Source of the DNA: Candidatus Omnitrophota bacterium
GTDB lineage: Bacteria > Omnitrophota > Gorgyraeia > Zapsychrales > JANLHA01
Direction: 5' to 3'
Length of the DNA stretch: 64,000 bases
Assembly: GCA_029560465.1 (NCBI GenBank)
Contig: JAKQKX010000073.1
Coordinates: 79,411 to 143,410, forward strand
Of the stretch, positions 5,448 to 63,300 are shown piece after piece; within the stretch, counting starts at the first letter, position 1; each line of letters begins with the position of its first letter. The notes below the pieces were generated by a model, which was not told where the DNA came from, did not search any database, and worked only from the letters and a program-made list of their open reading frames with translations. Made by a program: the position numbers and the translations under genes.

Positions 5448-5535
5448 AACGGCTGGCTTTTTAGAGCATCCCGATGATTTGAGGTTAGTGTGGGGTTTTT
5501 CGGATAAATTATTCTGATGGCAAGGGAGTGATTGT

Positions 5536-7479: not shown

Positions 7480-7658
7480 AATTTAGTTTGTTTCGAAGCG
7501 TCCGTTGAGGGAAAAATGGCCTGCCCTTTCCTTTTCAAGAGGGGATGCTTCGATTTCCTTCCAAAGAATTCTTGCCAAAAGCAATTTTCGTTTGTATACT
7601 AAAAACTATTAGTTAAAAGATGTTTTTAAAAACAATCGTAGGGAGCTCTTAAAATTTA

Positions 7659-14566: not shown

Positions 14567-14586
14567 TTAAAAATTTTAATAAGAAT

Positions 14587-14925: not shown

Positions 14926-14950
14926 AAGGCTTTAAAATGAGGGTACGGGC

Positions 14951-15259: not shown

Positions 15260-15279
15260 TGAAACGTAAATTTTAAATT

Positions 15280-16995: not shown

Positions 16996-17014
16996 GGATT
17001 ATAGGTGAATTGTT

Positions 17015-22696: not shown

Positions 22697-22734
22697 TAAA
22701 TCAAACAAAGCCTAACCTAAGGAAGAGGTATATC

Positions 22735-23625
22735 ATGTTAATGCTGACATTTGTTTTGACGATGTGTTTTTTGGCGGGATTTAGTTTTGTTGTTGGGCTT
22801 TTTCCGATGGAAATGGAGAGCCGGCCTACGTTAAAAGCTTTTGGATATGAGGTGGCCCCGGCAAAGAAGAAAAAGAATGCGACGTCCATGTTGCGTGCTT
22901 TAGCCATGTTTAATAAACCATTGTGTTCAGGGGGCCTTCGGAAGAGAATTTCAAAAGATTTATCTGTGGGGCATGTTAACTTGACGCCGGAAGAATTTTT
23001 CTTAATGAAGGAAATCGGTATTATTTTGGTGCTTTTGTTGACTTTTCAGATGATTCAGCCAGACATGATTCTTTTTTGGCTTTTTATGAGTCTTTCTATT
23101 GGTTATATGATGCCGGAATTTTGGCTTAAGGGAAAAATTAAAAAAGTCAAAGCTGTTATTGTGAAGGAATTGCCGAATGCCATTGATTTGCTTGGCCTTT
23201 GTGTGAATGCTGGGTTGGACTTTATGTTGGCTTTGAAGTGGGTTGTTGAGAAATCAACACCATCGGTCATGATTAACGAGCTTAATATCCTTTTGCAGGA
23301 AATCAACGTTGGAAAGACCCGCCGTGACGCATTAAAAGATTTGGCGGTAAAATTTGACCTTCCGGAAGTTTCTTCCTTTTCAAGGACGCTTCTCCAGGCA
23401 GATAAAATGGGGACCTCTGTTTCCGAAGCCCTGAATCTTTTGTCTGAAGACATGCGCCTTGCCCGATTCCGCAGAGGGGAACAAATGGCCATGAAAGCGC
23501 CTATGAAGCTGTTGGTGCCCCTGTTGTTCTTTATTTTCCCTGTTGTCGGAATTCTTGTCGCCGGCCCAATATTTCTGCAGTTTATTGAGGAGAATCCGTT
23601 GTCAGAATTGGGTGGGAAAAAATAA
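22735..23625 (+). CDS. tadC: TadC-like inner-membrane platform protein (T2SS-F domain)
   Basis: 'LPNAIDLLGLCVNAGLDFMLALKWVVEK...ELNILLQEINVGKTRRDALKDLAVKFDLPEVSSFSRTLLQADKMGTSVSEAL' T2SSF pattern. RBS AGGAAGAGG. N- and C-terminal TM helices. Confidence 0.7.
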   Translation: MLMLTFVLTMCFLAGFSFVVGLFPMEMESRPTLKAFGYEVAPAKKKKNATSMLRALAMFNKPLCSGGLRKRISKDLSVGHVNLTPEEFFLMKEIGIILVLLLTFQMIQPDMILFWLFMSLSIGYMMPEFWLKGKIKKVKAVIVKELPNAIDLLGLCVNAGLDFMLALKWVVEKSTPSVMINELNILLQEINVGKTRRDALKDLAVKFDLPEVSSFSRTLLQADKMGTSVSEALNLLSEDMRLARFRRGEQMAMKAPMKLLVPLLFFIFPVVGILVAGPIFLQFIEENPLSELGGKK

Positions 23626-39300: not shown

Positions 39301-42300
39301 CTAAGGGAGAAGCGGGCGATGGCAAAGGTTCTTCTTCTCCTGTTGCCTATACGAAAGACGGGACCAGGATTTATTTGGTTGAGAATGCCGATGTGATTAA
39401 AAAAGGAAGAAATGTTATCGCTTATCAGCACAATGCTGGTGTTGATGGGAAGTCCATCATTGTGGCGGTATATTCCGGATCCGCGGAAGCTGCTTTGGGC
39501 CAGATATCAAAACAGCTTTCCGCCTATAACGCAGCCCAGTTTAACAGCGCCGGTGTCAAAACTGGGAAAAAGAATGTCTTCTCTTCTAAGGGAGGGTGGG
39601 TTAATAGAGTGTTTTCTCGCTTGGGGGGAGGGGAAGTCTTAGTAAATGGTGAAACAGCCAGGGGGGCTGTTGTATCTAAAATTTTAGGTATGTTCGTTGG
39701 TAAAGGTGCTAAAGCTGAAGCAAATATTTTGATCGGCAAGTATGAAAATCTTAAAGGTCAGACACCGTCACAAATTTTATTTAAATATGCAGAGAGCAGG
39801 GGGGGAAAGAGAGGGATAACGAGTGCTGAAAAGATAGCGACCGTTTATTCCTCTATTTATTCCGCAACTGCAGGTGATCGCACAGCCGTGATAAATAAGT
39901 CAAAGTTGACGTCTGGGCAGAAAGAGGTGTTGAAGAGCATGTTATCTGCTTATGATCGTGTGCAGGCTGATCTTTCCTCGGTTCAAAGCACCAGTAGATT
40001 TTTTAGAAGTAAGAAAAGCGCGGCTCTTCAGAGTGTTTTGCTCTCCATGTTGGATATAAACGACTCGATCCTGAATCCTACCAATCCATATGGGAGCAAG
40101 AAAGGGTTGGAAGTGAGACCAGAGCAGGTGGCGGTCCAGATTTTGACTGAGAAAGCCGGCCGTATGCTCGGCGGTGAAGTTTCGCTTGGTAAAACAATCG
40201 CCACAATAAGCGGTATTTTGCAGGATATAAGGGGTGGCCGTGTTTCTTCTTCTAAAGGGAAGACTGTGGTTATTGAATATATATTGAGAGAAGACTTAAT
40301 AGGGCGGTTAAATATAGAGGCCGCCCAGGGGACATTAGATATTTTGAGCGGAAAGGGGAAATTAGGTCTCTCAAACGGAAAAATAGTTATCCGTGACGGC
40401 AAGAATGCGGGCAAAGAGGTTAAAGTTAAGGTTAAAGTTTTTGAGCCACCCACAGAAGGGTCGGCTAATGCCGAACAATACAAAGATTTAGTCGATGTCA
40501 GTGGTGCAGTGGATGCTTCTGGCCGCCGAAGATTTGCTTTTGCAGACGCTAGCCCGGTGGAAGCGGGCGACATTGTTCTGGCGATTCTGGGGCCGAGAGC
40601 ATTTCAGCACAGAGAGTTAGGAATGAAGTATCATTTTAAAGGCGCGCCTAAGAAAGGAATGTTTGGGGCAGGCGAAGGGGTGCAATGGACCCGAGTTAAG
40701 GCGTATGCGGATGATATTGACCGTTTGGTCGCGGAACCCGGGATGCGTTATGCCGGCCGTATGAATATGTCGGCGTTGGCGGATGCGGGATTGAATAAAG
40801 AAGCTTTGGATGGTTTAGCGGAACTGTTGCTGGGGGTATATACTCGGTATGATGCGGCGAAAGGCGGCAAGGTAGGAGGAAACAAAGAAGAAGCCGCCAT
40901 TGGCGAAGCCATGGATCCGGCTTTAAAGCTTTTGGATCCTTCTTCAAGAAAAATATTGCAGACTGCCCAAATTCAGCAATTATATGGACAATTAGTAAGA
41001 GAATTTTATGACAGCGTTACCGGGCCTAACGGAAAAACTAAATTGGTGGCTAACAAGAAAACCCAGTTGTTGGAGAAATTGTTAAATATATCTTCGGAAT
41101 ACCGGGATTTCTCCAAGGCCATGGGAAAAAGGCAAGACGCGGCTTTGCTTTATCTGACGCAGAGTTGGGCTCAGGCGACGTCTGGAACAAAGGACACCCC
41201 TGGCCTTTATAAAACAGGGCGGGATGTGTTCAGTTCTTTCATAGATCGGCATGTTTCTGATTGGGGCGAAGGGTTGATTCTTAATATGGGCGGCGGCGGG
41301 CTTCGTAATCCGGGAACTATGCCCGGGCATAAGGGTTTGGAAATTATGCTGGTCATACGTATGATACTTGAAACAAACCCGAAGAATCAGTCTGCGGAGC
41401 TAAAAGAGTACGTAAAGTATCTTGAGGAAAATATGGGTGTTACGCCGCAGACAATCAAATTAAATACAAAGGCCGGTAAAGCGGAAGCTGTGCAGTATAT
41501 TGTTAACGCCATGGCTTCCACCTCCCAGTTTGATATGAGTTTTGGGGAAGCTTTGCGCGGGAAAGCCGGAGGGGTAAAACCATGGAAGTATCTTGTGGGG
41601 CTTACCGGGACCCCGAGGTCAGCGAAAATAGGGTTTAGTGAATTAGGTTTGGTGTCAGCCATTGTCAGCCAGAGAGCGCCCTTGAGAACCGATTCTCAAC
41701 AAGGGCAGGTGGCTCGTGCGGATGTGGTTGCCTTGACCGGAAAACAACCGGGCAAGGGCTGGGAAGGGATTTTTACAAATAAGAATTTGAACGATAGCCA
41801 ATTGTATTTTGTTGCAAATGCCAAAGACGCAATTAAGGCCTCTTCTCTTCCTGATAATGTAAAGCTCAAACTGATAAGTTTGGCGGAAAAAACCACCACC
41901 TTAACGTTGGCAGGAAAGGAAGGGGTCGTTGGTACTTTAAAACAGAAAATTCAATATGTGGTTAAATTAGCTCAAGGTCTGGAAAAAATTAATGGAGAGG
42001 ATCGTTCCGGGTCCCGGGTTATTTTGGTGTCCCCGTCTGGCGACACCGAGGCGGCCATGATAAACAAGACCTTTAAAAACATGAAAGGGGTTGAGGTTAT
42101 CGGAGTCGGGTTCGGTAGCGACAAGGGTTCCCGTGATGCGGTTATAGAAAAAGTTACGGAGAGAGTCAAAGGCATGACAAAAGACGAGAACAAGGTTTTT
42201 CTCGTCGTAATTGCCGGCGAGTTGTCCGGGTCAAACTTAATGCCCATCGCCAAAGATTTGTCTAACGAGGGGGTCAGAGCTATCCCGGTTTTTACGGACA

Positions 42301-45300
42301 TCAGAAGTGAGGCCGCTTTGCTTCAGTTTATCGGTCGCGCGAGCATGCCCTGGAACCGCTCCGGGCGTGTAATAATGGATGATATAGGGAGCATGGGTAT
42401 TTTTGATATGATGAATACCGGGCTTACGACAGATTTGAGAACAGAGATTAAAACTGTTCAGGCCCAGACGGTGTTGGATCTTTCTAAGGCCAAGGCCGAT
42501 GGAGCCTCCTTTGTTAAGCAGGCGGCAATAGTTGCTAAGGGCGAAGCGAAAGTAGAGCAGATTTTTCTTAAAGCAATTGCGAGGCAGGAAGCTTTTGAAG
42601 CCCGGAACATACGCGGGTTGATCGTTCAGAACAATTTGATGTCGGCGGCCCAGACCACGGAAATTTTAGCCATGGCTGAAAAAGCCGGTTCTGGAGACCG
42701 GACTGGACAGATGAAGGGACAAAAAATAGCGCAGTTGATTTCCAACCGTGCTGCCGAGATCGCCAGCGGTAATACCACCATGGCAAACATAGGTTTTATG
42801 CCGGTTGCGGATTCTAATGTGTTGGGTGGAAATTTTGTGGGGACAGGAGACGGAAGCATCGCGTTATCTCAAATAGGGTCTTGGACACAGAATTTAGGGG
42901 GGCAAGAATCTTTTGATGTAATCCGAGAAGGTTTCAATATAGAGGTATTAGAAGCTGGAATTGGGACGCAGACAATAAATACAAAAGGTGGGAAGGTCTG
43001 GACGATTCCCGGCTTGTCTTTCTCTTTGTTCACTCCTGCGGAGGACAGCAAGAAGCTTTATGCCGTTTATACTGACAGCACAGGAATCGTGACTTCTAAA
43101 GTTGAGCTTGATCAGGATTGGGCGGCAACGCTGAATAAAGAAGGTGGCAGTATCACAATCCCCACAGGAAACAAGAGCGAGACCATGACCCTGACAAAAG
43201 GGGCGAGAGCAGATACGTTTAAGTTGGCGTATGCCTCCACAACAGGCTTCCAAAAAGATTCTTGGACTTTAAAAGCCCAGGACGCCTATACGATGAATGT
43301 GGAAGGTTTTGGCGTCATGCCGATTGCCACGGAGCAAGATCTCCTGTCAGCCCTGAAGAGCACCGACGTGCGCAAATATCAGACAGGCGTGTTGCAGCCT
43401 GTGAGCAGACAAGCGGTTGTCGCTTTGCTGGGTGAGAAATCGATGGGTGACCTGGAAGATATTTTTGAAAAAACAGGGAATCAGGGAACAGAAGTAACCT
43501 TTACGCAAAATTATCAGGCAGGAATTGACCGGGCGGTGAGTGAAGGCACGATAGAAAAGAGCCAGGGTGACGCTTTAAAGAAGATGGCTAAAACTAAAAA
43601 GGTGGCTAATTTGAGCCGTCAGTTCCTGATGCCTGGCAGCGGTGAAGATACTGCTCAGCAGGAGCCGCGGGTGCAGAATCTTGATATAACGGTTCAGTAT
43701 AAAGGGAATAATATTTTGACTCGTAACAAGAGGGGCGGTTTGGAAATTGGGGTGACCCCGATGATCGGTAGATTTGCGAATGCGTCCACGCGTGCCCGGG
43801 CCTACCGTATGATGGCGCAAACGCTCATGTTGAACAATAATTCTCTGGGCGTGGTCAGTCTTTTAGATGCCGTGATAGCGCAGCAGACGACAAAAGAGTA
43901 TTATGGATACACAGCGGATGAAGATATTGACCAGGAAACACGGTTAGCTATTAAGCGGGCGACATTGCTTTCTTCTCGGAGCGCAGAGGCAAAGGCTCAA
44001 ATTAGTGAATATTTGTCAGCAGGTTCTGGCGAAGGGGTAGCAGAGACGGCTGGAAAACAAATTCAGCAAAAAATGGCTAATGCGACCGCCCGGAGATTGC
44101 TGTCCTCTTATGAAACCATGGTGGATATTTATGGGTATATCGCCCCCAGTTTTGTTTATAATGATGCTTATGCGCAGGATTTTGCACAACAGGTAGAGCA
44201 AATTCGTCAAGAGCAGGGAACGGACGCGGTGGCGCGGGTATTAGCGATTGCTCAAAACGCGAAGAAAATAATCAACGATGGTGTTACTCCTTTAAATTTC
44301 CGGCAGAGATATATATTAACAAAGTTGGCGGAATTGGCCGAACCGGAGAACGAATCGAAAGTCAGGAATTTGATCAGTGCGCCGGTTAGTCTGGGGGAAG
44401 GACTGTATTCCAAAGAGTCCGGTGCTGGCATAAGATTGTTATTGCCTGAAGAAATGACAGACCGGGATCAGGGGCGCGCCGCTTATAGCTCGGATAGACA
44501 TGAAGTTCAGGTTTCCATGATCAACCTTGACCTGACCGGAAAGATTAGTGATAAGACATTTTGGGGGTATGATTTTTGGCATGAGAGCGTGGATCACCCT
44601 GGCTTGGACATTACCAATACCATATTGATGACAAGAGTCAATCTGAACGAAGTCGGCGCTCAATTATTATCTAATTTAAGAATGCAGGACGCCACCCTCG
44701 CTGATACAGAAGAAGGGAAGGATTTGCGGCAGTCAACAGACGTGTTTAATAAGATTTTTGGTAATCTTATGGACATTAAGACAGTTAAGAAATTACAGGA
44801 AACATCATTGCCGGAAATGGCGGATATAGCCTTTAAGAAATATAGTCTCATCCAGCCGGAAGGCGTTAAAAGAGAATTAGAAGCTGAAAGATTTGCTTTT
44901 ACCGCTATTAATTTGATGCAGACCGCTTTAAAAAAGGGCGGAGTGGATGTTTTATATCAGCTGGACGATGAACTCAACGCTTCCAATAATAGAGAAGGGG
45001 TCTACACTCCGAATATCTTGGCTAATTATAGTGAAGCTGAGCATGGGGCAAAAATTTATGTGAAAAAAGGTGGCGTGATTGGAATGGGCAAGGAAGTGTC
45101 TCATTTGATGGCGCTTTTCCATGATGGCAACCATGCTTTAAGCGAAAAGAAAGAAACCGCGTCTCCGGGGTATATGTCCGCCAAGGTCGCTGAGTTGCGC
45201 CAGATTGTCAGTGAAATGAATGACCCGAACCTTACGGAAGCCGTGGGCAGGCTTTTGGATCGGTTCCAGGCTATAGGAAATAATAAATATGACCATCCCG

Positions 45301-48300
45301 TAGAGGATTTGATAGTTGCGCTGAATGATACCAGCCGGACAGATATTACTCCCGCGACTATAAAAACCGAATTGGGTCATATTAAGGACCGCGTTTCTGG
45401 AAGCCGGCAGTTTGATCAAACAGCGCAAAGCACACAAGATTTTGTGGTGGCAGTAGATCAGTTATTAGGTCAGGATACTGTCAGCTCCGATGACCTGAGT
45501 CGCCTGGCATCCATGCCTTTGGCTAAAACCGAATTCGGGGCCGGGGTTGAGCTTATGGGACATGTAGCGCCATTTTTATTCATGCCAGCAGAGGCGGGTC
45601 AGTTCCATGGCAATGACGCAGATTTGTTGACCGTCGCTAACGCCATTATTTCCAATGACCAGTTGGGGCAATTTATGCGTCAATATAATGCCGATATCGG
45701 TGTGCCGGTTGAAGCTATTGCAAAAGCTAAGCAAGCTGAAACTTCTTCTCCGATTAGCGGCACAGAAACAACGGCCGCGTCCTCCAGTTCTCCGATTCAT
45801 GTTATAGGCCAAGATAGTATTTTGGCTTTGAATACGGAAGATGCGCAAGAGTTGTTTTTAGGTATCGCAAATGCGAGCCTTGCGGTTCCGCCGGCGTATA
45901 AACAATATGCGCCGCTTATTCCTGATAACTATCAAGGAACTCTTCCTCCGGATGCAGCCTCGGCGGGTGGTTCTGATGGTAAAAAAAGAAAAACATCTAG
46001 AATTACACGAAAGATCCTTTTTGAAGAAGAGGTTACTGCCGGAGAAACAAGAGATAAAGGAGATTCCGGGGACGGTCTTTCTCATAGTTTAGGTCGTCTG
46101 CAGAACAGCAGAGGAGAAAGAAAAGGTCGGACTCGCAGTGGCTTGGAATCAAAAGAACCAACGACAGCAGTGGCAGGGCGCTTTGCTCCGACTTCTTCTG
46201 CGCCCAGAACTTCTTCTTCGTCAAATCAGGGGGTTACGGCGCCATATGCTTTGGATATTATGATGCCGGTTACCTCTGCGTATTACTCGAATCAGTCCGG
46301 ACAGATTTCTTCTGTGTCTTCAAATATAACCCAGCAGCCTTTGGGGAATATCGTTTCCTCTCCGGTTGCCGGTGAAATGCGGCAATTTGGCTCCGTGTCT
46401 TCGGAGTCTATTGTAGATATGACGACCAGAGACCTTTCTGTTTCTTCTGGTTTGGCGCCTCCGGTCAATATGCCAACGCCGACGTTTAAGCAGCCCGCGG
46501 TATCTTCGTCGATTGTTCCGGTGTCCCCTGTTTCCCCTGTTTTATTGCCGTCTTTCCATGTTTCTTCCACTCCGAAAATTACAACCACTGGTTTTAGCGC
46601 CAGCAATATATCAAGCTCTCCGATTAATTATAATGCGAATATCCAGCAGCGGCCCAGTGCGATCGTTAAGTTACCCACGATTCAGGCCATGGCGTTATTT
46701 AACAACCAAAACGAATTGCGGAATATTATCCGTAGTGAAGCGGAAAATGACTATAACCAGTTAGATAACGCCGGGCTTATTGATCTTTTTGTTGACACCC
46801 TGAAAGATAAGAAGATGGGTGTTGACTCGGAGATTTCCGGCCTGCAGAGCATTGAAGTCGAAAAAGCGGACAGTATCTTAGACCGAGTATTGTATGTTGT
46901 TGCCGGTAAAACGTCATCTGAAGTTAAGAGTTTGGGGCTTACGAGCAATGAAGGGTATCCTCAACAGGGTTATCGTATTGGGCAAGCTGGGCCAAAAGAG
47001 ATGCGCGTTGAGTTGGACGTTATGACTCCGGAAGTCGTTATGCCGATGCTGGACCAGGTGAAGAGTAAGGCGGAAGTCAAAGAATGGTTGATTCAGCAAT
47101 TCAGCGTTCAGAGGATGGCAGAGAGCCTGCCGAAGATGGTTGGCGAGGAAAACCTGCAGGCCGGAGTCGGGAGCCATTATCATCACAGTCGCGCCGAAGA
47201 TTATGACCAGGAAACAGCGCAGGCCATGGAAGTTTACCAGATTTCCACGGAATTTTATCGAAACATCCTCGAGGGGATGGCGACGGATAATGTGCAGTTG
47301 TCAGCGATGCCTTTGTCCCCCAGCCCGACGTCCATTGTCGGCCATCTGCAGGATTATCGTCGTGTTTCGACGGGGAAAGATTTCACTAGCAAACAAAAAG
47401 GCATTGCTGGCCAATATCATTCCGAAGAACGCGTCCCGTATTTGACGAAAAGCGCCCGCGCTTTTGTCGAGACCGCCGTTGTGACGGCCAAGATGAACGA
47501 AGTCAATAGAAGAGTGCTCGAAGATAAAGGGTACAGGGAAGGCATTAAGAAAGATGTTTTGACAAAAACAGTTGTTAAGATGAAGCAGGCGGGCAATTTG
47601 ACGGATGAGCAAATCAAACAAAAAGTCGCTGTTTTGGATAAAGTGATCGGAGACGACGCTTTCTTCCCGGCGGACTTCAATGTTTCTTATACAAAAGATG
47701 CGGGCGCGTTTAAAGAAGTGTTAGAAGCCAGTTATGAAGTTTTTGTGGGTGAGCTTGATTTGCCGGAAAGCATGTCCAGCCGCGCTTTGGCCGCATACCA
47801 GGAATACAATGCCACCGTAGACAAAGTTAAATCTTTATCGGCGAATGACAGCACCCAATTAACCGAAACTCAACAATCCTTGGTCAGCGCGGTAAATAAC
47901 TGGGCCAATGTTTCCACTTTGGATTTCGTTCAGGCGATTAACAATAAGAAGCAAGCCATTGATTTTTCTGGAATTCAAAGCAACCTCTCTGCCCAGAGCG
48001 CATCTTCTCCTGTTAGTATTGAGCAAGCCAAACAGGAATTTAATAAAGCCGTTCGGAGTTATAACGAAGCGGTGGAAAGCGGAAACCGCCTCTATGATGT
48101 GCGTCCGATTGTTAAGGGGATGGCGGCGGCAAACAGGGAATTGAATGCCCTCCCCACCAGCAAAGAAAAGACCGAAATTAGCAAGAAGATCAATCAGGGA
48201 AGTCAGCAGATGTTATTAGAGGGCATAGAGGGCGCCCCGTCGGTCATTAATCGGTTAGGCAAGGCGATCAGTCGTGACGAATATACCCCGAAGGGTCAGG

Positions 48301-51300
48301 AAAAAGCGCAGGTTCAGGAAATTATAGAAATGGCCGCAGTTCAAATGAAGCAATTGGAAGCAGAGAACGGCAAGGCGGCGGTGGCTAATATTCGCCGGGA
48401 CTTCAATGACAGTGTCCGTTCGATGATGGATAAGATTGAAGTTAGCCCGGAGGTCAAGAAAGATATAAGGTTAAGCAGCTATGAACAGAAAAATCCGGCG
48501 ATGTACGGATGGCTGACACAGGCGATCAACGAAGTGGATGAAGCAGCGAATGATGCTCAAGGGCCTTTGTCACACGGGATTACTTATGTGGTCAAAGGTG
48601 GAAAGATATACACGGATGGAACAAAGGCCCCGCACGCCACCTTTATGAATGAGAAGAATTATCCGGAGTTGGGTGGCTTGAAGACCGGCGGCGCCGATTA
48701 TATAGGGTATATGCGGGTCGGCAAACAAAACGGGAAATTGGTATTGGCGGTTGACAAGGGGTCTAATACGGCCAACAGCAGTGCCCAATTGAGAGACTTC
48801 TCTCGTAAGATTGGCGAGTTAAAACGGGTATTAAATGACTTGGGAATTCAAGCCATTGTTTCGGTCAATGGCCGCGGGTTAGAAGCCGATGGTACGTCCT
48901 TAAACGGCCTGAGAGCCCAGAATTATATAACCGATGCGCCCACTAATATTGTTGTTTCTTCCGCGATTACAAAGATGGCGGCCGGTGATGTTTTACGGAC
49001 TCAGGGCAAAAATCTTTGGGCTAACCCGGCGGTGCAGGATACGGCCGTGTATCTGTCGCAGAACGGGTTGGATGAGAGCTTCCAGCGTGTGGAAAAATCT
49101 TCTCTTCCGGCTTACATGGAAGTCTACGAGAAAGACGGGATTCAGATTATTCGTAAGGAATTAACCCGTGAAAACGCCAATGAAATTAGGCAATTAGCGC
49201 AGGCGCAACGCCAGTCGAATGTCCCTGTTTTCTTTGCCAAGGGTGACACGGAGCATTATTATGAAGTTAATCTTGCTCCCGAGGGATATACGACAGCTTA
49301 TCAGGTTGTCCGGAATTCTCCTGATAGATTGGCGAAACTAGCTGAGATTCAGCCGTATATTATGGCGGCGGCTGACGACGGGTTGAGATTTGACAACAGC
49401 CAGTGGTTTGTCCATAATCACCTGCATCCTAAGAATATTATGATCAAACAGAACGATGCCGGTGAAATTGAAGATGTGAAATTTATCGATTGGAAAAAGT
49501 TAAGTAGCTTTAACCCTGCGGCGAAACCAGAAACAGCGCTTCTTCAGCAGGGCGACCAGAACGCGTTAAAAGGCGTCAAGGTTGAGGATGTGGGGTTAGA
49601 GTGGTTTGATTTCACGGATTACGATTTGAGTGGCACTGACTTTACAAAGACCGCCAAGATTTTCGGGTCTTATGTGGATCAGGCCAAGACATCTCAAGAA
49701 ACCAATGTGCCGGAGATGGAAGTTGGTTTGAACTTTGTGGCGTTGGTTCCAGCTATCCCGGCTAACAGGAAAGACGCTACGCCGCGTTTAAGAGGCGGAA
49801 TTCAATCGTCTCCTGTTCAGTTGACCCAGAAGCCGACCGCGGAACAATTCTTGGCTATTAAACAGGCGGTTGCCAAGTCTGATTTCTTCAAGGAAAAGAG
49901 CATTGTCAGCATAAGATCCAATGCCTCTGAACAAGATAAGGCTATTTATGAAGACGGGAAATTAAATGTTAACTTAAATAATTTTGATCTTAAAACAGTT
50001 AATGCCCTCCAGTCTTCCATGGGGGTTGGCGTGGAGCAGGCTTATACGGAATACGCGACGGTTGTTTATAACCATGAAAAATTCCATCGCGAAACGATCA
50101 GTAACGAAAAGAAACAGCGTAGTGCTCAGCCGAGAAAATCCGGCGATTATACCCAGCGCGAGTTGCAGGGCATTATTAGTGAGGCAAGAAAATCCGAGGA
50201 TGATAATATCCGGACGGCGGTTGCAGAAATTGATAAGATTATGTCGCAATCTTACCATTACTCTCCGCAAGACGCAGATTTCGGCGAAGAGATGTTCGCT
50301 AATTATATAGAGAATGGCGGATTAATGGTAAGAGGGGTTTCTGGATCTGGAACCCGGGACGTAAAATTCGTGCTGGCGGCCAACGCTTTAATGCAGAATT
50401 TGGTTAAGCAGAATAAGATTTCCAGGGCTTTTGTTGATCGGATCGCGGAGAAAGCCGAAACAAAGGACACGGCCTTTGATCCTATGGCCACGGATGCGGC
50501 CCGTTTCGTCGCCAATCCCGAATCTTATGCTAAGACGATGTTGGTTGCGGCCAAGAGCAGTTCTGTTTCTTCTCCGATTGAAAGTGATGATTATTCTGAC
50601 TTTGAAGCGGATCGGCCGTATCAGCCGTATACGAACGTGGCGGCTCGGGATGTTTTACAGCCGTTATTCGCCGGAACGCCCGACGCTAGTTCCTTGTCAT
50701 TCCTGGATGTAGGGTCTGGTTCCGGCATTAACACGGTTGCAGCTGCTTCCGAATATAAGGTGAACGCGATTGGTATAGATCCTCAAGCCAGCAATGTGCA
50801 GTTCGCGCAGAATTTGGTTAAATCTTATGCCGGCAATTTAAAAGAGCAGGGCGCTTTTGAAAAACCCGGGGTTGTGGATACCCAGATTGAAGATTTTGTC
50901 GCGCAGGGTGTTCAGCCGAAATCGGTTGAAAACGCGAATTTTGTCGAAGGCAGCGCTACGGATCTCCCGTTCTCCGATAATTCCATTAACAGAATCGTTT
51001 ATACGGATGTTGAGCCTTTCATCTATGATCAAGAAGGTAAAGATAAAGCTATTGATGAAATTTTAAGAGTGGTCAGTAAACAGGACGGGAAGATTATGGC
51101 CCGACCTAAAGCTGGGGCCAAAGAAAATGACGTGGCTGTCTTTGTCGACCGCTTCCGGAATACCGCCGCCCAGAGAGGGCTTGCCTTAGACGTCCAGCGA
51201 ACGGAGATCGCTGGGTCGAACAATGGTATTCTGTTCACGGTTCGGCAGTCAACCCCGGCTTCTTCTCCGATTAACGTGGCTCAAATAGACTCCTTAGAAA

Positions 51301-54300
51301 CACTTCTTAAAGGGGATCTGAAAGGGAAGAGAATTCTTGAAATCGGGCCGGGCGCCAAGACCGATTTGATTGAAGCTTTGGTGGATGCCGGTGCGGAAGT
51401 TTGGGCGGTTGATTCCAGGATTATAGGTCGGGGTGAAGAAGCGCTTATTTTTAACAATCCTGATAAGCAGAGCGGAGTGGTTGCTGGTGCTCAGGCGCAA
51501 ATAGCCGACATGACGCAGTTTCTTAAAAATTATATGACTCAAAATCCGGACAAACCTTTTGATGCCGTTATTTCAAGAGGGGGCTTTGAGATCGGTTATG
51601 TGACGCAGGAAGGGAAAGCGCAGTTCTTAGAGAAAGATCAAGTTAAGACTTTGACGGACACATTAAGCCTCTTAAAAGGTGGCGCGCTTAAAGAAGACGG
51701 CGTGTTGGTGGCGGAAATGCATTGGCCGGAAATGTCCTTGGCTGCGATGGCTCCAGGAAAGATCGAAGAGGCAGGGTTCCGTAATAGATCTGTGACAGAT
51801 AAAGTGCTTGTCCTTCAGCCGGCTCGGGTGAGCGAGGCGAAGTCTTCTCCGATTTCTTTGGGTGATTCTGAAAAGCGTTCCGCCCCTGCTCAAATGACTC
51901 GCGCCCAATTGGAAACAGAGGTTCAGGCTTTGAGGAGTTTAGTTATTACCGATCCATTAACGAAAATTTATAATCGTGCCGGTTTTGAGAAACGTTTGGC
52001 AGAAGATGTTTCTGTTGTGAGTCGCGACCGCCGTCACCGGCTACAGGTTGTTCTTCAGGATTTGGACCATTTCAAGGCAGTAAACGACCTCTTTGGACAT
52101 CAGGTCGGGGACAATGTTTTGGCAGGCGCGGCTCGCATTATGCAGGAAAGTATTCCGGAAACCGCGACGGTTGGCCGTTGGGGTGGAGAAGAATTCACGC
52201 TTTCCTTGCCGGGCATGAGCGCTGTCCAGGCAGTAGAAGTGGTTGATGGTATTCGGAGCAATCTCGTGAACGGCGTTTTGCCGGGTGAAGACCAGTTGAA
52301 TGACCGCGAGTTTGTCCAGAATGCTATTACCAGCATGGTCAAAGCTGCTGAAACGGGCCGATTGACTAAACAGGAAGCAAATAATTTTAAAGCGGCGCTT
52401 ATTCATCAGTTTGAAGAGCAAGGGCTTTCCGGCGTTACTCCTACGACGGCAGCGGGAGAAGACGGATTAAAGGTCTTTTTGGTTGGCATGGAAGGGATTT
52501 CTAACATGCCGACTGCGGAACAGATGCGGCAAATGCCGTTGGCCGAATTGCCGTATGAACAGTTGAGCCGTTGGGTGAGTACCAGTGGACAGGAAGGGGA
52601 AGACTTCGCCATTTCCATCCCTGGCGTGAGCGCGGCCGAGGCCCAGAAGATTGTCGGGGATATCCGGGTGAAATTGAGCTCCGAGAGCATCCCGGAATTC
52701 GTCCAGTTGAATGACCGAGATTTTGTCCAGCAGAAAATTCGCAGTTTCGTGGATGATGCCGTTGCCGGTAAGCATACGCAGAAAGAAATCAGTAAGGTCA
52801 GGTCTGCTATTGTTCACCAATTTAAGGTGCAGGGAATCGAAGTTGAGGGTTCTCCAACCCCAGCGCAGATGATGCAGATGCCGCTGGCCGAGTTGCCTTA
52901 TGAAAAATTAGACCGCTGGGTGGTGACAAACAGCGCGGGTGTGGCGACGTTTGATCCGAAGGAAGACACCATTAATACGGCAATCTTGCACGCGGATGTG
53001 GCTTTGGCGCAGGCTAAGTCGGAACGCGCTAAGACCCAGATTATTAAGAATGCCATCGGGGAACGCGACGCCGGTATTGAATTTTCACACAGTTATAGTC
53101 AGGGTGAAGCGATAGTTGAGCAGATGACCCGTGAAGACCTGGAAAAAGAAGTCGCGGTATTAAGAGATCTGGAAAGTTTTGATCAGTTGACGAGGGTTTA
53201 TAATCGCCGCGCTTTTGATAAAAAAGTTGAAGAGGCCGTGGCCTCCGTAAGAGCTCCTGGCGAACGCCGTAAACGTTTGAATTTTGTTATGGTGGACATT
53301 GATTATTTCAAGTCCATCAACGATTTGTTTGGGCACGATGTGGGCGATGATGTTTTGCGCGGGTTGGGTGTCGTGGCCAAGGCTTCTGTCCGGGACAGCG
53401 ACAAAGTAGGCCGCTGGGGCGGAGAAGAATTCGGCATAGTTATCCCCAATGCCAGTGCCATGGATACGGTCCGCATTGTGGATAGAATCCGGGCAGGGTT
53501 AAGAAATGCGATGATTCCGGAATTATCAGCTTTGAATGACCGGAACTTTGTGCAGGGGAAATTAAGAGAGTTTGTTGATGCGTCCCTGTCCGGGAAAAAG
53601 ACCGAAGATGACGTCACGGCAACTAAGGTCGCCTTGATTCATCAGTTCCGCGTTCAGGGTTTTAAAGATTTGCCTTCTAATGAAGCGATGATGGACATGC
53701 CTCTTGTCGAGCTTCCTTATGATCAGTTGGACCGTTGGGTAGTGACGCATAGCGCCGGAGTCAGCGACTATAATGCGGCTCAGGAAAACCCGACAGAAAA
53801 CATGGTTTTGAAGGCGGATCTCGCTTTATATTCGGCAAAAGAAACCCGTAGCAACACCCGCGTTTATGAAACCAATGTCCAGCAGGCAGTTAATAAATAC
53901 GCTAAAGAATTAGCGCATAGTTCCAAGCATTTTATTTGGCAGTTGGAAACCGTTGCTGACACTGCCGTGCAGGGAGCTCCACAGAGCCGGGAGGCAAAAA
54001 GCGCCTTTAAGATCGCCCAGGCCCATGGCCGGAAAGTGTTGGCAACGTATGGTGTCACCGAAGGGCATGAAGATTTTCAGCCGCTAATGGATTCTTTTAT
54101 CCAGACTCTTGCCCAGGAGCGCGGACGCGTTTCTTCGTCTCCGGTGGAACAAACTTTGGGGAGCGTAAGTTCTCCTGTTCCTGTCGAACCGTTCAAGGCG
54201 CAGCTTTCCTTTGGGCGCGGCCGGAAGAGCGATAATGTTGTTAGAATTCTTGGGGAACTCGATAAGACCGATTTGAAAGAACAGCCGCAGCAATATCTTG

Positions 54301-57300
54301 GTTTGTTGGTTTCTTATTCTCGTGAAGTTAATGATAAGCCCGAGCGGGCGATTGAGGCTAGGGCGGAAATCACCCGGGCAAAGACGTATATTAAAGAGAA
54401 CTATATCGCCTCCGCCGATGATTTGGTTAAATACAGCGATGCTTTGGACATATCGCCTAAGGGCCAGGCTTTGGTTGCGGCTTATACCAGGCTTCGTGAT
54501 GATGAAATTCACATTACTTTGCCGCGCATGGCTGATGTCGCTAAGATTTCCAACACCGAAGCGCAGGAAATATTCGACGCAGAAATCCGGCCGGTAATAA
54601 AGATTGCTGAGCAGAAGCTCCCCGCCGATCAGGAAATCATGGCGATTATGGATAGTGCGGAAGCGGATGACTTGGAAGAAAAGGCTTTTGCGAGCCTTGA
54701 GAGCGATATCCGGGACGCGGTTAATAAAGGCGAGTTTGCGACGTATGATGATGTGGTGGCTGTCACGCAGGGCATGACACAGTCGACGAAGCACCGGGTG
54801 TTGGGTAAGCTGCAGAGCTGGCAGTTGTCCGGCAGAGATTTTAAGAATATCCAAGAGGCGGCCACGCAAGCCGAGGCCGTGGCGCCGCGGCCAGTCCAAG
54901 TGATGGGGCATGTGGTCAGAGTTCATAATCAAGTTAAATCGTCAAAGTTGCAGAATTTACAGTCTAACGACGATTTGGTGCCCAGGATCCAGGAATTTTA
55001 TGCCGGGATTGAAGGCTTCCACTTAAAAGGTAATTTAAAAGGGCTTGAAAGAGCGCACATAGGCAATCAGCGGGCTATTTTCAGGCAACTTAATAATGGC
55101 GGAGTTGTCCTCCTCGGCGTAGAAAACAGGGGTGACATTGATTATGGTGCTTATGAAAAATTCACTCCGGCTAACATGTCAGACGAGGAGTTGCTGGCGA
55201 AGTCTTATGAGTTAACAGAAAAAGTTTCGTCTCCGATTGAATCTCAGGATAGAATTGCCGTGGTTGTCTCCCGGGATTCTAAAGATATTGATTATGAAGA
55301 TCTCCGTACCTTGACCGGCGCAGTAAATAATGCGTCCCCAGATCAGCGCTCTGTGGTTTTGGCTAAGATTTCCGATGTGATGAAGTCGAATCCCAAGATA
55401 GAGAGCGAAATTCGATCGCAGGGTGAAGTCGTTCTTGATGTTCAGCCGCCGGCCGGGTATAGCGAACTCGTGACTCTCACGCCGGAACAGGTGCAGAATC
55501 TTTCTCCGAAGATGGCAAACTTGAGTCCTTACCGTACCGAAAGAGCTATCTTGGCGGTTGTGGCGCAGGATCCGGTTGTGTTAAAAGGTGACGGGACTGC
55601 TTATGATGGAAACAACCGCATTATTTGGGCGCAAAAAATGAATGCGCCGTTGAAGGCATACGTTCCTAAGGGGCAGAAGGAAATGCTTTTGGCGTCGTTA
55701 TCTCAGTCCAGCAGAGATAAGGGAACAGCCAGCAGCAGTCCGGTTGCGTGGCAATTAACGCAGAGTCCGGCTCGTCAAATGCCGTTAACTTCCCAGGAAA
55801 GAGCGCATTCTTTAGAAACAAAAGAGATCGTTAAACGAGGCGGTATGTTGCAGGTGTCCTCTTCTGTTGTGGCACGGCCATCGCCCATGGCTATGGCGCA
55901 GGCTCAGCCGGGCGGTATGATGCAGGTTTCTTCCGCGGTTGTCGAAAGGCCGTCACCGGTGGCTATGGCGCAGGCTCAACCAGGTGGATTGATGACCGTC
56001 TCTTCAACGGTTGTTAAAGAACAACAACAGTTTCCGGCGATATCCGTGCCGACCATAGAATCGCCAAAACCGTTTGAAGTGACAGCGCCTGCGATTATTG
56101 CGACACCGGAAGCCCCGGCCGTTACTTTGCCGATCACAACAATGCCGGTTTTCATGCCCTCTCCTTTAAGTGAAGCGCCGCGGGTTGAGGCTCGGCCGGC
56201 TGAAATAGCCTCGGCTTCGCGCAAAGAGGGCCGTTCTTCTCGTCAGAATAGTGAGTCATCAAGCGCAAAACCGGAAAAACGCGGTGGCATGATGCAGGTG
56301 TCCTCTTCTGTTGTGGCACGGCCATCGCCCATGGCTATGGCGCAGGCTCAACCGGGCGGCATGATGCAGGTTTCTTCCGCGGTTGTTGAAAGGCCGTCAC
56401 CGGTGGCTATGGCGCAGGCTCAGCCGGGCGGCATGATGCAGGTTTCTTCCGCGGTCGTTGAAAGGCCGTCTACGCAGATGGAAATAACTCAGCCGGGCGG
56501 CATGATGACAGTATCCTCTTCGATTATTGAGAAACCTCAAATTGCCAGTCTTGAGGCCGAAACATCTAGACCGTTTGAAATGACGGCCGTCGCTCCGGCC
56601 CTTTCAGCGCCGGTATTTCCAGTTCTATCTTCTCCGTTAAGTCAGAGCCTTATGCAACAAACAGAACAACCTTCCGTCCAATCTGCTCAGGCGGCTGATT
56701 TTATGGACAGGTCGGCTATTCAGCAGCAAGAACGCTTATCCGTTCCGTCCCAAACAACGATGTCTGGTGTTCGCCCGACGCCATCACCCGTGCGTAATCT
56801 TAATCTGACCAGGCCTGAAATGAACTTTGCGGCTATTCCTAAACCGGAAAAACGAGGCGGGATGCTTACGGTGTCTTCTACTGTTATTGACCGCCGGTCA
56901 TTGCCGGTTTCCGCCCAAGCCAAGGTTTCCAATCCTGAAGAAGATGCGGGCTTGTCTGCGGCAGAGATGGTTACTGAATTGCCGGTTAGTGCGCCCTTGT
57001 CTGCACCGATGCCGGTTCTTTCTGCTCCTATCGTTCTTCCCGCGTTCACAGGTGGCCCGTTTGCTTCTGAACAGCGGACTTTGACTACGGAGATTTCAAA
57101 AGATTTAGCGCAAGCAAATACTTATTATGATGCTCGCAGCCAGATCCAGCAGGAACAAGAAGGCGAGATACAAGATTTGTCATTCTGGGACATCACATCT
57201 GGTGCTATGAGCCAGGCTGTTTCCTTGGATGAGAAAGTCCGATTGGCTCATGATGCGAATAAATCCGTTGTGTTGTTTGAGCAAGGAAGAACCCTTCCTG

Positions 57301-60300
57301 AATTGTTGTCTGCCGCTAATAAGACAGTTGCCGAGACATCCCGGCCAGTCTATGTTTATGTTCCGACAATGGAATCCATGGAAGTGGAGCGTGTCGCCAC
57401 TCAGATGGGGATAAATTTACCGAAAGAGACTTTGGGGCAGATTTCACAACTTATGGCTGAAAAACCGCTTGTTTTGGGCGGCTTGGATACTTTAATCAGC
57501 GCTGTGCCGGAATTGGAAAAATACGATATCGTGCTGGTCAGGAATTTCATGATGGCTCTTCAGCAGGCCAGAAAAGCCCCGTTTGTGTCTTACCAGAAGA
57601 GCCTTGATGGAGAAATAATTTCTCAACGATTAGCGTTTGAGCAGTTGCCTAAGAATTATCCGATAGTTTTGTTAGGAAACGACGAGACCCTTAAACCGTC
57701 TTCCGAAGAGTTGCGTAAATATATCGTTGCCCGTAAACCATATTTGGATAATGAGCTGGTTCAGCATATTTTGCCGACAACAGAGCGGCTTCAGTTGGCT
57801 AAAGGGGAAATTTTGGAAATTGCACCGGTGTCGTCATCCATTTCGACAACTGCGGCAGAGAAAGAAGGGGCGGCGATTATTTATGCGGCCAGCCTTTCGG
57901 TTTCTGAGAAGATGGGTGTGATCGATTTTATCGGAAGATATCCCGAATTTAAAGATGGGACAACGAAGGTTGAGATAATTCGCGGGAAGGATCTTGAGTC
58001 AAAAATTTATATGGCTGATGACACGGGGAAGACCCGGACGGTTCTTATTCCCGAAGATGTGTTCTATAGTGTGATTTCTAACCCGGTTTTGGGAGAAAAG
58101 AATCAGCGGATTGGCATAGAGAAGAGCGACAGGGTTGATCTGGCCATGAAGACCGGGAAATATGCCCATTCGTTGCCATCGGAATATCATACAGTTGATT
58201 TAGGTCAGGTTTTGAAAAAGCATGACTTGACCTCCGGGTTGCAGATTACCGATGAAAATCCGCTTTTGGTTGCTTATGATCGCCGCGATTTTGACGTAGC
58301 TCAGGATCAGATGGAGAATATTTTGGTCTCTTTGGCGAAGACGGTTGATGTTTCCGATTTATCGCAGATCACCCGTCTCCAGGTTGTTCCTTCTGACATG
58401 AATCTGCCGGCGAAAATTATGTTGACGGACATGAACAAGCAAGGACAGCCCAAGACATTGATTTTGGCACAGTCTTTGATACAGAATCCCCAGGAGATTC
58501 AAAACGCTTCTTTGATGGTTGATAGTCGGAGTTCTATCGTGAGATTGGCAGAAAAGCAACGGGCAGAGACGATTGCCCGGAATCAGATTGATCCGGACGC
58601 AATTACGGTCGTACGCCTGCCGGGCGGGGACAGGGCTTATATCGAGAAGAATTTTGTTAGATTTGTCGACGACCGTGGCCGGGTCCGTAAACAGCAGATG
58701 GAGTTTAAGGGCGTTAATATTATTGAAGTGGGGCGCATTATTGCCGGGTTGAGCGATCAGCAGCGCAGGAGCTTGTACTTGATCGAGGCGGACAAAACAG
58801 CGGATATTTATGTGGATAAGGCTTCTGGAGAAAAGTGGCTTCCGGTTTCAGTTCATCTTGGTAGCACGAGATATTTGGCTTGGGCCAGATTTGATGAAGA
58901 GATGGAGTTGGCTGTGCCGGTTAACGGAAATCAATTGATTTACGCTGAGAAGATGGTCATGTCCGCGGTCAATGAAAGTGGCCGTCCACAGTTTAAGCCG
59001 GTCGGGTTTGATAAGCGCATTGATTTCGATACGTTAATGCCCGGCGCCGACTATTCGGTGGGTGACTATGTGGAATCGTTAACAAGGCAATTAGCGATGG
59101 AAGAAAACATTTCTATCGATTTTGTCAAAATTGATGATTTCAATTATTTTGTTAAGCCCACAGGCGTTCGGATTATTAAGAATGATAAAGGCCAGACGTA
59201 TTTGATTCTTGGAACCGAGTATGTTAAGGCCCAGAACGACCGGATCGCAGAGGCCCAGAAATATGATTTGGCCATCACAGATCCGTTAGGGATGTATCGA
59301 GCATTTATCGAAGAATCTCAGGCGAAAGAGCTTGAGGTCAAAGATGCGTTCGGTGTTTTTGTTGTGGCTGTGACGAACAAAGTCGGTCAGATTTTAACCA
59401 GAGATTCGAGATCTGGTGGGCAGGATCAAATCGCGTTGAAAGATATTCCGATCCTTTATACCACATTAACCGGGGAGCAAATTATTGTGGCTTCTACCAA
59501 GAAGTCTGATATTGAGCAATATCAGTTTGATATTGCTATTGATCGCGGCATCACGACACGTAAGGAACAGTTGGCCGAACCGAAGGTGTTCGAAGCAGTT
59601 CCGAGTTCAGCTCCTGTGACCACACTGCCGTTGTTGCCGGGCACAGATACTTCAATTATGCCTCCGATCGGCCTGTTGTCTCAGGCTGTTCCGGTTCAGG
59701 CAAGTACGACAGAAACAGTAGAAACAGCACAGATTGAGAAATTGGCTTTAGCCAGTATCCCGATTAGCGATGAAGAGCTTAATGGGCAATTATCAAAGGT
59801 GGGCAGTACGGTTGAGATGCTGGATATAGAAACAAATGAGGTTGGAAGAATCGTTTCTAACGTTCAGTTCAAGAATCCGTTCAGCGGTCAAGAAGTCCGG
59901 TTGGCCAGCGTAGAGATGAAGAATGGGGATGTCCAATCGTTTACTTTTGATGAGTTTAAGAAAAAGAATATTCGTATTGTTCGTCCTTCTGCCGAGCAAC
60001 CTTTGTCAGAAAAGACTAAAATCGCTTCGGCTCAAAAACAGCTTTCAAAACCGACTGCGGTTGAAATTCGACCGGCAGCTTCACCAGTACGTAATTTGCC
60101 GTCGACTGCTACGGAACGAACATGGGTAGATGCTCAGGCGACGAGAAAAGACCGGATGAAAGAACGCCAGTCTGGCGGGTTGTTAATGATGTCGGCTATG
60201 GTTATTATGAATCCGGCTGACGCGGCTGTCCAGGAAGGACAGTTTGAAGAGGCTAAAGATTCGTCATCGCCGATTATGGTGGCGTTAACCAATCCGATGG

Positions 60301-63300
60301 TGTTGCCGGAAGATGCTAGGGCTGGCGGTGTTCGAAAAGACAGCGTAAAGTATGTTGAGGTAGCCCGAGTGTCCTCTTCTCTGAAGCAGGCGGCTCCCGC
60401 GAAGATCACGGAAGTTCCTATGTTGGCAAAACAAATGCCGAATATAGCCACGATAAGTAGTTTGTCTCTTAATAATCGTGCAGCGTATGATATTTTAAGA
60501 ACCGCCATGACGCAGACCATGAATTCTCGGCAGGATAGAGCGGACTTATCTAGGGAAATGAACACTATTTTGGCAAGGGCGGCTCAGGAAGGGCAGCGAG
60601 TCATTAGCCCCGAAGGCTATCCGTTAACTGAAAAAGCCTTACAACAGTTATCAAAGCTCAAAACTAAAGAAGATCTTGCCGCTTTGGTTGGGAAAGACGG
60701 AGCTGAAAGCCTGTGGGATCAATTAAAAGACGCCTTGAAGATGCTTTTCGGCGGAGAAATCAAAGCGGATGAAAAAGAAGAGAGTGTTCACCTGGCTAAA
60801 GTCGACCAGGAGGCCATGCAGGGTGAAGGGGTGTTGACATCACCACAATATATAGAAGAAGGAACGGTGTCGACAGAAACAGGCGTTCTTAAGTCTGACG
60901 TGACTGTATTGAAGGAAGCTTCGAGGGCTCCTCCGGAGGAAATGAAAGCCGATGTAACGATTGCTGAAACAACGGTTAAGAAAGAGGATCAAGAAGCAGC
61001 TCCGACGCTTGCAACAGCGCCTCCGTTAGCGCCGCCGATTGTTAGTCCGGAAACATTGGTACCTCAATTACCAGCACAAACAGCCCCGTCTTCACCGATA
61101 TTTGTGCCTGTATTGCCTATTGCCGCATTTACTCTGGGTAAGGCGACGACCTTGCCGTCTAACCAAAAGAATCCGATAGAAGGACGTAAAGAAACCGGAA
61201 CAAAGGGCATTCCTGTTACGAGTATGCCATTTAGTTCCTCAGTTCCTGTTGAGGAAGAGCCTGTGCCTGGAGGCGGATCAACAGGGCCTGTGAGTGGCTC
61301 TACGAAAGCCAAGACTGCTTTAGTTATTGCGTATGTCAGGGATATGGCAGCGAATAAGGGAGCTGTTGCCAGCGCTCCGGTTGTTAAACCCGAAGCGAAG
61401 CGACAGCATGTAGATTTAAGTACTGACAAAGAATCTAAAAAGAATTTTAGAAGTTCTGGTTCTAGTCCTACGCCGTGGGGCGCTGCCGAGACTTCCTCAA
61501 GTCTCCAGGCAGGAAAATCCGAAGAGAGGACAAGACTTGAACGTGTTGTAATGGTTGTAACGGTTGGTGTGCGTACGGCTGAAACGATAGCAGGTAATGA
61601 AGAGTTAAAAACTAATTGGGTGAGAAACGCCAATCGCGGTAACGATAACGCGAACGGTGTAAGCAGCGCAATCGTTGAATCGGCTCGTGTGACCATCGCT
61701 GCATCGAAAGCGGTCACATCAGAGTTAAAAACTGGTTGGGTGAGAAACGTCAGCCGTAGTGACGATAATACGGTTGGTGGTGGCAAAGAAATCGTCAATA
61801 TTGTAACTAGCAGTACGGTTCTCTCGGCGAAGACAGAAGCCGAGGATGAGTTAGAGACTCGATGGGTGAGCGCCGATCGCGAAGGCGTTAGCGCGATAGG
61901 TGTAGAAGGTGCATACGCCAAAGCCGGTTCTTTGAGAACGTCTGGTATTAATGGCTTAGCTGCCATCAATTGGTTTGGCCTCTTCGGAGGTTTTGCCAAG
62001 GCAATTAAGGCTGTTTTGACTGGATGGTTACAGAGAATTGCTAGATCTGGGTCTGGTAACGGGTCTAGAGAGGGTACATTACCGGAAGCTGTGCCTGCAG
62101 CCAGCTATAGCCTTGAGGGTTCTATCGTCAAGGTGGCTGAAGGAATATTCGTGGCTGCCAAGTCTACGCTGACGAAAGTTGGTGAGTGGCTGAAGCAGTA
62201 TGCGAACCGTGTTGTAACGATTCTTAGAACGTACGACAGCAAATGGACTAATCGCTCTGTACTTATCATTGGCGTTGTCGAGGATACGACTACAAGTGAA
62301 GGTGTGCATGCATCTGCGCTTGGAAGCGAATCTGGTAGCATGGCTGGTGATAGGTCTGGTACACATTCAAATGATGTGTTTGGTGTGTCCAGTGTAATCA
62401 GTAATGGATATGACTATCTGTATAGTCGTATTGATTCCATTGCTGGTGTTGAAACAGTTGTATCTCGTTCTGTTAAAGGTAGTGCTGACAGATTAGCGGT
62501 ATTGCTTAGTGCCAATGCTGGTAGTGTGGCTGACGTAACAAGCGATTCTGGTGTTCTGTCCAACAATGCTCTCAGGGGTTCGGCTGTAAGTGTTGCTGAT
62601 GTCTCTGAGAAAGAGTCCTTTGGTGCGCTTGATCAAGAGATTGGTCAAGGATATGTAGCTGTTGATGTAAGCTATATCAAAGGTTTGCGGTTTGATGGAT
62701 GTGTAGCTTCTGTGCTCAGTAATGGGTATGGATTAAGCACATTGGCATCAACTTCGATTCTTGGCGCTTTGGTCAGTGATGATCTGAGTTCTAAGAATGT
62801 GACCTTTGTGTTAGGTTATGTGAATAATCTGACTGCTACATCTAAGGTTGCGTATGTAGGTGCTATAAAGGGTATTGCTGGTAAGGCTGCCATATCGTTA
62901 GTTGCGCTGAAGCAGTTACATGAGGTTGAGGCGTTAAGCGGTTCTGTGGATCTGTATAGTAGAGTTCTTGGAGTGTCTGCCTCTATAAGGGTAAGTACTT
63001 CCAAGGATAAAGCCTTTACGCAAAAGCTTGATCGAAGTAACGTTCAGGCCATTGTTGCTGAAGCAGTATTAACTGAAGGTGTGTTGGCTGGAGAAGGTGT
63101 CCTGGCTGAAGGAACTGAAGGTGTTCTGATGCCGGTTGAAGCTATATCCAGTCCGGTTCTTAGTATACAGCCTGAAAAGGTCGAAGGTGCTAAGAATGCT
63201 GCCTTTGGTGTGAGGCTTGGTCAAGAAATTGATCAGGTAATACCTGCTGAAGATGCGTTCAATGTATCTGCTGAGGTTGTGCTTAGCAGCGTTAATGAAT

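Follow-up and report, generated by a model that had tools for sequence, protein, structure and literature searches.

Is the tandem of methyltransferase-like domains found in a giant open reading frame (ORF) of a Candidatus Omnitrophota bacterium made up of two enzymes, or of one enzyme and a degenerate partner? The question is raised by a stretch of 64,000 nucleotides of contig JAKQKX010000073.1 (hereafter the window, whose coordinates are used throughout, all features lying on the plus strand), where the initial annotation had placed two such domains directly upstream of a GGDEF pair in a giant protein. All these elements were found at the expected positions or next to them. The segment concerned (50568-51854) lies within one open frame and holds two modules, MT1 and MT2, each bounded by the tetrapeptide SSPI; the ORF as a whole (24327..64000) is open and continues past the end of the window. 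In a reading that we hold to be likely, MT1 and MT2 are two independent, probably active (as predicted) class I S-adenosylmethionine (SAM) methyltransferase modules, carried by a membrane-anchored giant of the Archaeovorin-like or 'multi-enzyme cluster' kind. This reading draws on what was established for the modules: their fold and motifs, the purifying selection acting on them, their distribution as separate modules and their genomic context.

The MT1 and MT2 modules

The profile matches and motifs of MT1 (50580..51260) clearly place it among the class I SAM methyltransferases, with predicted activity. Three Pfam profiles matched it above their cut-offs, namely Methyltransf_25 (46.0 bits, cut-off 27; E 9e-12), Methyltransf_31 (42.4, cut-off 27) and Methyltransf_11 (40.5 bits, cut-off 21.2), with E-values ranging from 9e-12 to 1e-9 for the three, and its nearest solved structure in a Protein Data Bank (PDB) search was that of B. 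subtilis YcgJ (1xxl, E 1e-5). The textbook motif I initially read in this domain, LDVGSGSG, is located at 50703-50726, and its residues D47, G49, G51 and G53 are invariant in an alignment of six homologues. The post-I position (GID, 50772-50780) is always D or E in the six sequences (GID, GLE, GVD), so that the SAM-binding acidic residue, whose conservation had been singled out for checking, is indeed kept. A GxGxG-type motif I loop and an acidic residue at the end of beta-2 are common to MT1 and the known class I methyltransferases, from which MT1 differs as a module inside a giant protein and by an insert with a conserved YAGNL motif (50826-50840) that characterises its family.

Relatives were sought with HMMER among 1.84 billion representative proteins. 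Those of MT1 reside mostly within large proteins of 1,343-6,156 residues (here designated P0003, P0004, P0005, P0007, P0009, P0011 and P0016), P0003 being named at NCBI as an Omnitrophota class I methyltransferase; a few stand alone, with about 195-356 residues (P0008, P0010 and P0012-P0014). As judged from these sequences, the MT1 family is Methyltransf_11/25-like and recurs in many large Omnitrophota proteins as well as in stand-alone form. Three other Omnitrophota proteins (P0003 1722-1862, P0005 1192-1343 and P0006 130-257) have in common a C-terminal domain of about 130 residues, starting with GGIDLRxLPIVTQ and placed after the MT1 module; the portion of the giant that the window covers lacks this domain.

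As for MT2 (51273..51842), no Pfam profile matched it above its curated cut-off: the only match, to Methyltransf_23 (E 5.4e-4; 20.2 bits, under the cut-off of 27), was present in all three family members. The Pfam support expected for 50.5-51.9 kb was therefore borne out for MT1 and stayed below the cut-off for MT2. There was no match in NCBIfam, and PDB searches with the single sequence and with a three-sequence profile returned chance matches only (ankyrin designs, ribulose-phosphate epimerase). In a protein index apparently without these giants, the MT2 profile gave only an insignificant match to RsmA, sharing LEIGPG. An hhalign comparison of MT2 with the MT1 family yielded an E-value of 5.9e-4 and a probability of 29%, with motif I and beta-4 in register.

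The single sequence of MT2 was modelled by AlphaFold2 (AF2) with a predicted local distance difference test score (pLDDT) of 37; with a two-sequence alignment, the pLDDT was 62 and the predicted TM-score (pTM) 0.64, and the model displayed alternating strands and helices with a terminal beta-hairpin. When this model was compared with the PDB by Foldseek, all 33 matches at E<=1e-3 were class I methyltransferases (best E 6.2e-6), as were nearly all the matches listed; they include XrdM (8rdl), ToxA (5je6), PrmC-like, TehB-like, NNMT and MnmM. The SAM motifs I, post-I, II and III, as defined by the consensus of Kagan and Clarke, correspond in MT2 to ILEIGPGA (51333-51356), VWAVDS (51399-51416), PFDAVIS (51555-51575) and LLKGGA (51669-51686), respectively. 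Because structure prediction and Foldseek support it, we conclude that MT2 has the predicted fold of a class I methyltransferase, and that its set of SAM motifs is essentially complete.

The HMMER scan revealed a sole distant relative of MT2, at residues 2405-2592 of a protein of 6,364 residues (P0002), with 51-52% identity. ILEIGPGA, VWAVDS, IADM and PFDA..SRG are invariant between the two, including the acidic residue of VWAVD, while motif III LLKGGA, shared by the window and its orthologue L001 (contig CAZAXH010000003.1 from an independent metagenome-assembled genome, MAG, used for the substitution ratios below), differs in P0002. MT2 is a member of a rare orphan family. It resembles the class I methyltransferases by its motif I loop, the acidic end of beta-2, motifs II and III and a strand-helix order ending in a beta-hairpin, and is unlike the known ones in being an internal module of a giant protein with one detectable relative among the proteins scanned.

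Relation to published Omnitrophota giants and cellular location

Giant ORFs are widespread across the Omnitrophota phylum. N-terminal C39 domains, along with GGDEF and methyltransferase domains, have been described 'in many Archaeovorin sequences', with neighbours resembling type II secretion systems (T2SS) (West-Roberts et al. 2023, bioRxiv 10.1101/2023.11.21.568195). In a second study, 137 long proteins were reported to have PF08241 as a hub domain, together with a 24-protein C39 architecture cluster, a 'multi-enzyme metabolic cluster' class and a Pfam 'Module 1' (bioRxiv 10.64898/2026.06.07.730766).

The window gene was compared with the Archaeovorins over its visible 13,224 residues and the upstream side, the gene continuing beyond the window. 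Archaeovorins are further characterised by a divergent SecA-DEAD domain and by PilZ genes on their downstream side. Like them, it belongs to an Omnitrophota host, carries an N-terminal C39 near the first membrane segment, neighbours a T2SS/Tad-like locus, and has methyltransferase and GGDEF domains scattered through a mostly unannotated polypeptide. Unlike them, it displays no detected glycosyl-hydrolase over these residues and few membrane segments (about eight) instead of numerous ones. The array, which had been presented as unusual, is one more example of an already described class of giant multi-enzyme Omnitrophota proteins, because its arrangement matches the one published for the giant genes of this phylum. 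What is newer is that the modules, MT1, MT2 and most of the others, are delimited by a short Ser-Ser-Pro-Ile/Val junction.

The Peptidase_C39-like domain (24804..25226; PF03412, E 4e-10, residues 216-297) follows a hydrophobic segment at residues 44-62. Its candidate catalytic Cys172 (NCGVYAL, 24837-24857) and His (HFVTV, 25095-25109) are residues whose roles we take from the C39 consensus. A crude hydropathy scan placed candidate membrane helices only at residues 44-897, with one further weak segment at 4705. The methyltransferase/GGDEF array is probably cytoplasmic rather than surface-exposed, because SAM, GTP and ATP are cytoplasmic cofactors; the cell-surface or secreted location first put forward for the protein is not supported.

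In the mechanism that we propose, each module would be one complete small enzyme with a Ser-Ser-Pro-Ile/Val junction on both sides. MT1 and MT2 would each use motif I and the acidic post-I residue to bind SAM, and would pass the methyl group to some acceptor; their site of action would be the cytoplasmic side, where a kinase-like module and the two diguanylate cyclases with GGEEF are their neighbours. Their fusion would serve co-expression and co-localisation near the Tad-like apparatus, and not the formation of an MT1-MT2 heterodimer.

Several observations weigh against this picture. Concerning MT1, a Ser is found where the acidic residue of 'GDA' after beta-4 is usual, and NCBIfam returned generic or far sub-threshold matches only (ArsM-, UbiE- and MenG-like), with no substrate-level assignment. 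As for MT2, the third Gly of GxGxG is a Lys (a Glu in P0002) and the model is only moderate, with its pLDDT of 62 and Foldseek TM-scores of only 0.34-0.46. At the level of the whole protein, the seven N-terminal segments given by the hydropathy scan, an odd number, would formally put the C-terminal part outside the cell, and its visible residues gave no match to the SecA-DEAD, NUDIX or glycosyl-transferase domains that typify Archaeovorins.

SSP[IV] junctions between modules

The SSPI noted initially before each methyltransferase domain is present at 50568-50579 (preceding MT1) and 51261-51272 (preceding MT2), and a third copy precedes the GGDEF region (51843-51854), the three being encoded by TCTTCTCCGATT. 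As a whole, 18 SSP[IVLMF] sites were observed in the window giant (39333-63158, e.g. also 45744 and 55227) vs. 0.9 expected, i.e. about 20-fold more, and all 18 are located beyond residue 5000. In P0002, whose gene lies on the DNA designated L002 (10001-29095), 17 sites were counted vs. 0.57 expected, and 7 vs. 0.1 in P0001, a partial protein from a third assembly; none was found in P0004. Among 4-mers, SSPI ranks first in P0002 and, outside a local repeat, also in the window giant. The sites are conserved in L001, and most MT1 and MT2 homology blocks in other giants end at most about 20 residues from SSP junctions, the exceptions being P0007 and the 3' end of the P0004 block. No mention of the motif was found in the text of bioRxiv 10.1101/2023.11.21.568195 or of bioRxiv 10.64898/2026.06.07.730766.

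The nucleotide sequence of the junctions is itself constrained. The proportion of synonymous differences (pS) is 0.10 within the motif codons vs. a background of 0.376; conservation is confined to about 14 nt, and the flanks evolve faster than average (proportion of nonsynonymous differences, pN, 0.10 vs. 0.06). In the window, the second Ser is encoded by TCT in 14 of the 18 sites (p = 8e-5) and Pro by CCG in 14 of the 18. The junction codons of P0002 differ from those of the window and are equally uniform (TCCAGCCCGATA vs. TCTTCTCCGATT); TCCAGCCCG occurs 11 times in L002, on the plus strand only. The seam is thus constrained at the peptide level across lineages and at the codon level within each gene.

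Three simple explanations were rejected. A purely nucleotide-level signal common to the lineages does not agree with the different codons used by P0002, a purely peptide-level signal is insufficient given the codon bias and the low pS, and internal translation starts following SSPI are contradicted by the lack of Shine-Dalgarno-like sequences and by GTT and GTA, which are not start codons. The junctions may, tentatively, be seen as a functional seam, consisting either of processing sites that would free the enzymes or of in-frame recombination/insertion seams that would swap modules between giant genes; the data cannot decide between a processing site, a recombination/insertion seam and a translational signal.

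A competing explanation for the array is that the giant is a polyprotein, cut at SSP[IV] by the N-terminal C39-like domain or another protease, which would release MT1, MT2 and the diguanylate cyclases. The enrichment of the motif in the window giant, P0002 and P0001, the coincidence of the sites with module borders, their conservation in L001 and the linker-like faster evolution of the flanks are all consistent with it, as is the candidate catalytic Cys and His of the C39 domain. Besides, twin-arginine-signal-like sequences (SSPLKVTRRSFIKSIGGLGAAF and SSPTISRRSFIRITAF) directly follow junctions in P0002, where two receiver domains also start; no such signals were found after the junctions of the window giant. 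Known C39 peptidases, however, cleave after Gly-Gly and are not known to do so after SSP, neither the first 5,000 residues of the giant nor other giants such as P0004 contain the motif, and strong synonymous-site constraint is not expected of a purely peptide-level protease site. The cleavage is a putative one, and we regard the polyprotein as a possible, if doubtful, alternative. Published work on Omnitrophota giants likewise suspects cleavage and states that the cleavage points are unknown, which hindered structure prediction per module.

The arrangement is reminiscent of viral and eukaryotic polyproteins and of the modular non-ribosomal peptide synthetase and polyketide synthase megasynthases, whose inter-module linkers are conserved and where complete enzymes are likewise strung together with a short recurrent junction. 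The modules would likewise be shuffled between proteins at the junctions, which here consist of a four-residue SSP[IV] core with gene-specific codons; any cleavage or assembly-line chemistry would be putative. In practice, SSP[IV] junctions offer natural cut points for the in-silico dissection of giants into modules and a handle on the shuffling of whole enzymes between giant genes, and processing at these sites, if true, predicts neo-termini at SSP|I/V in proteomics.

Concerning the genomic surroundings of the P0002 gene, L002 (3-39095) harbours three very long ORFs arranged head to tail, of >3,318, 6,364 (P0002) and >3,316 residues. No SSP[IVLMF] site was found in the giant downstream of P0002.

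Are MT1 and MT2 a pair?

The candidate origin of MT1 and MT2 by tandem duplication was rejected: there is no BLASTP similarity between them, and the hhalign result reflects distant, fold-level relatedness only. At least seven other large proteins (P0003-P0005, P0007, P0009, P0011 and P0016) carry MT1 but no MT2, with MT1 beside LysM, GT87 or unannotated sequence, and P0002 carries MT2 but no MT1 module. The two do not form an obligate pair, because each is found apart in other giants. Giants with the same domain order, which the initial annotation had proposed to look for, do exist, as the L001 orthologue and P0001 share it; the MT1-MT2-GGDEF-GGDEF order was seen only in the species-level clade of the window. 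A combined MT1 and MT2 query found no homologues in the protein index mentioned above, apparently devoid of these giants, and metagenome scans gave no match.

These distributions also bear on the initial suggestion that MT2 is a pseudo-enzyme, i.e. a catalytically dead structural or regulatory partner of MT1, comparable with METTL3-METTL14 and DNMT3A-DNMT3L, in each of which an active and an inactive member are paired. MT2 does lie directly next to MT1, stays below the Pfam cut-off and has the third Gly of motif I replaced, and its ratio of nonsynonymous to synonymous substitution rates (dN/dS) vs. L001 exceeds that of MT1 (0.137 vs. 0.046). This value is nevertheless one of purifying selection, P0002 has motifs I, post-I and II unchanged at an overall identity of about 51% (motif III differs there), each module exists without the other, and no similarity points to a duplicated pair. 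An inactive MT2 is in our view unlikely and is not favoured, because the SAM motifs are invariant in its sole distant homologue; the predicted reading of MT2 as an independent enzyme corrects that of a dead partner.

Coding status of the giant frame

A stop codon at 24309 is followed by the first ATG at 24327, and no stop was found up to position 64000, giving at least 13,224 visible codons (39.7 kb). The L001 orthologue is collinear, with 87% amino-acid identity, no stop across 21.3 kb and an identical module order. The dN/dS of the whole frame vs. L001 is 0.12, and values of 0.055 and 0.047 were obtained for GGDEF domains 1 and 2, respectively. The giant frame is truly coding, because dN/dS is low against this collinear orthologue. 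Residues 8639-10523 are also 100% identical to P0001 (HPN56380.1, 'diguanylate cyclase, partial [Candidatus Omnitrophota bacterium]'), which is encoded on an independent 5.7-kb contig. An assembly chimera, or separate genes misread as one frame, could be feared in a MAG, where giant ORFs are often fragmented or misassembled, but this is extremely improbable and already largely refuted by the 39.7 kb without a stop, the collinear stop-free stretch of the independent MAG, the low dN/dS throughout and the MT1-MT2-GGDEF order found again at 100% identity in P0001.

Two compositional traits of the giant were also observed. Cys is nearly absent, with 5 residues in 13,224 (172, 382, 390, 879 and 12792), the first being the candidate catalytic residue of the C39 domain. 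At 55911-56570, a unit of about 24 residues (PGGMMQVSSAVVERPSPxAMAQAQ) is locally repeated about five times, and the ambiguous alignment of this region with L001 suggests that the copy number varies.

GGDEF pair and kinase-like module

Pfam GGDEF matched two stretches downstream of MT2 (E 3e-69). GGDEF domain 1 (51936..53021) has its GGEEF at 52182-52196 (giant residue 9286), no RxxD I-site and a long insert, while GGDEF domain 2 (53175..53876; TIGR00254, E 4e-72) has its GGEEF at 53418-53432 (residue 9698) and an RDSD I-site five residues upstream. As in diguanylate cyclases of the PleD and SiaD type, GGEEF is kept in both domains and the RxxD I-site in the second; unlike in these, no receiver or sensor domain is directly attached, and domain 1 has its long, partly duplicated insert. 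This insert resembles a partial duplication of the C-terminal half of the domain itself (…GEDFAISIPGVSAAEAQKIVGDIRVKL…).

The kinase-like character initially attributed to a module upstream of MT1 (49011..49694) stands only in a weak form. EcKL matched it with an E-value of 1.9e-4, at 21.3 bits, under the cut-off of 22, and the PDB matches were insignificant, all of them being protein kinases aligned on the catalytic loop. In this loop (HNHLHPKN, 49413-49436), a His replaces the catalytic Asp of protein and APH-type kinases; FIDW is found at 49482-49493. The module is homologous to two copies in P0004 (6,156 residues; E 2e-17), both with the His-containing loop, and would be either a pseudokinase or an enzyme with variant chemistry.

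Neighbouring genes

Upstream of the giant, Tad/T2SS-like genes were found at 4644..9821, coding for RcpC/CpaB, a secretin fused to TonB_C and an AAA_31+T2SSE ATPase, and two T2SSF (TadB/TadC-like) genes (21842..23625) directly precede it. Between the T2SSE ATPase and the T2SSF genes, three large ORFs (567, 571 and 1,348 residues; 10730-21341) have no Pfam match. The GC content is low at 10-14 kb (0.37-0.39 vs. about 0.46). For both the malate dehydrogenase and the T2SSE ATPase of the window, identical proteins from MAGs of Candidatus Omnitrophota are recorded at NCBI.

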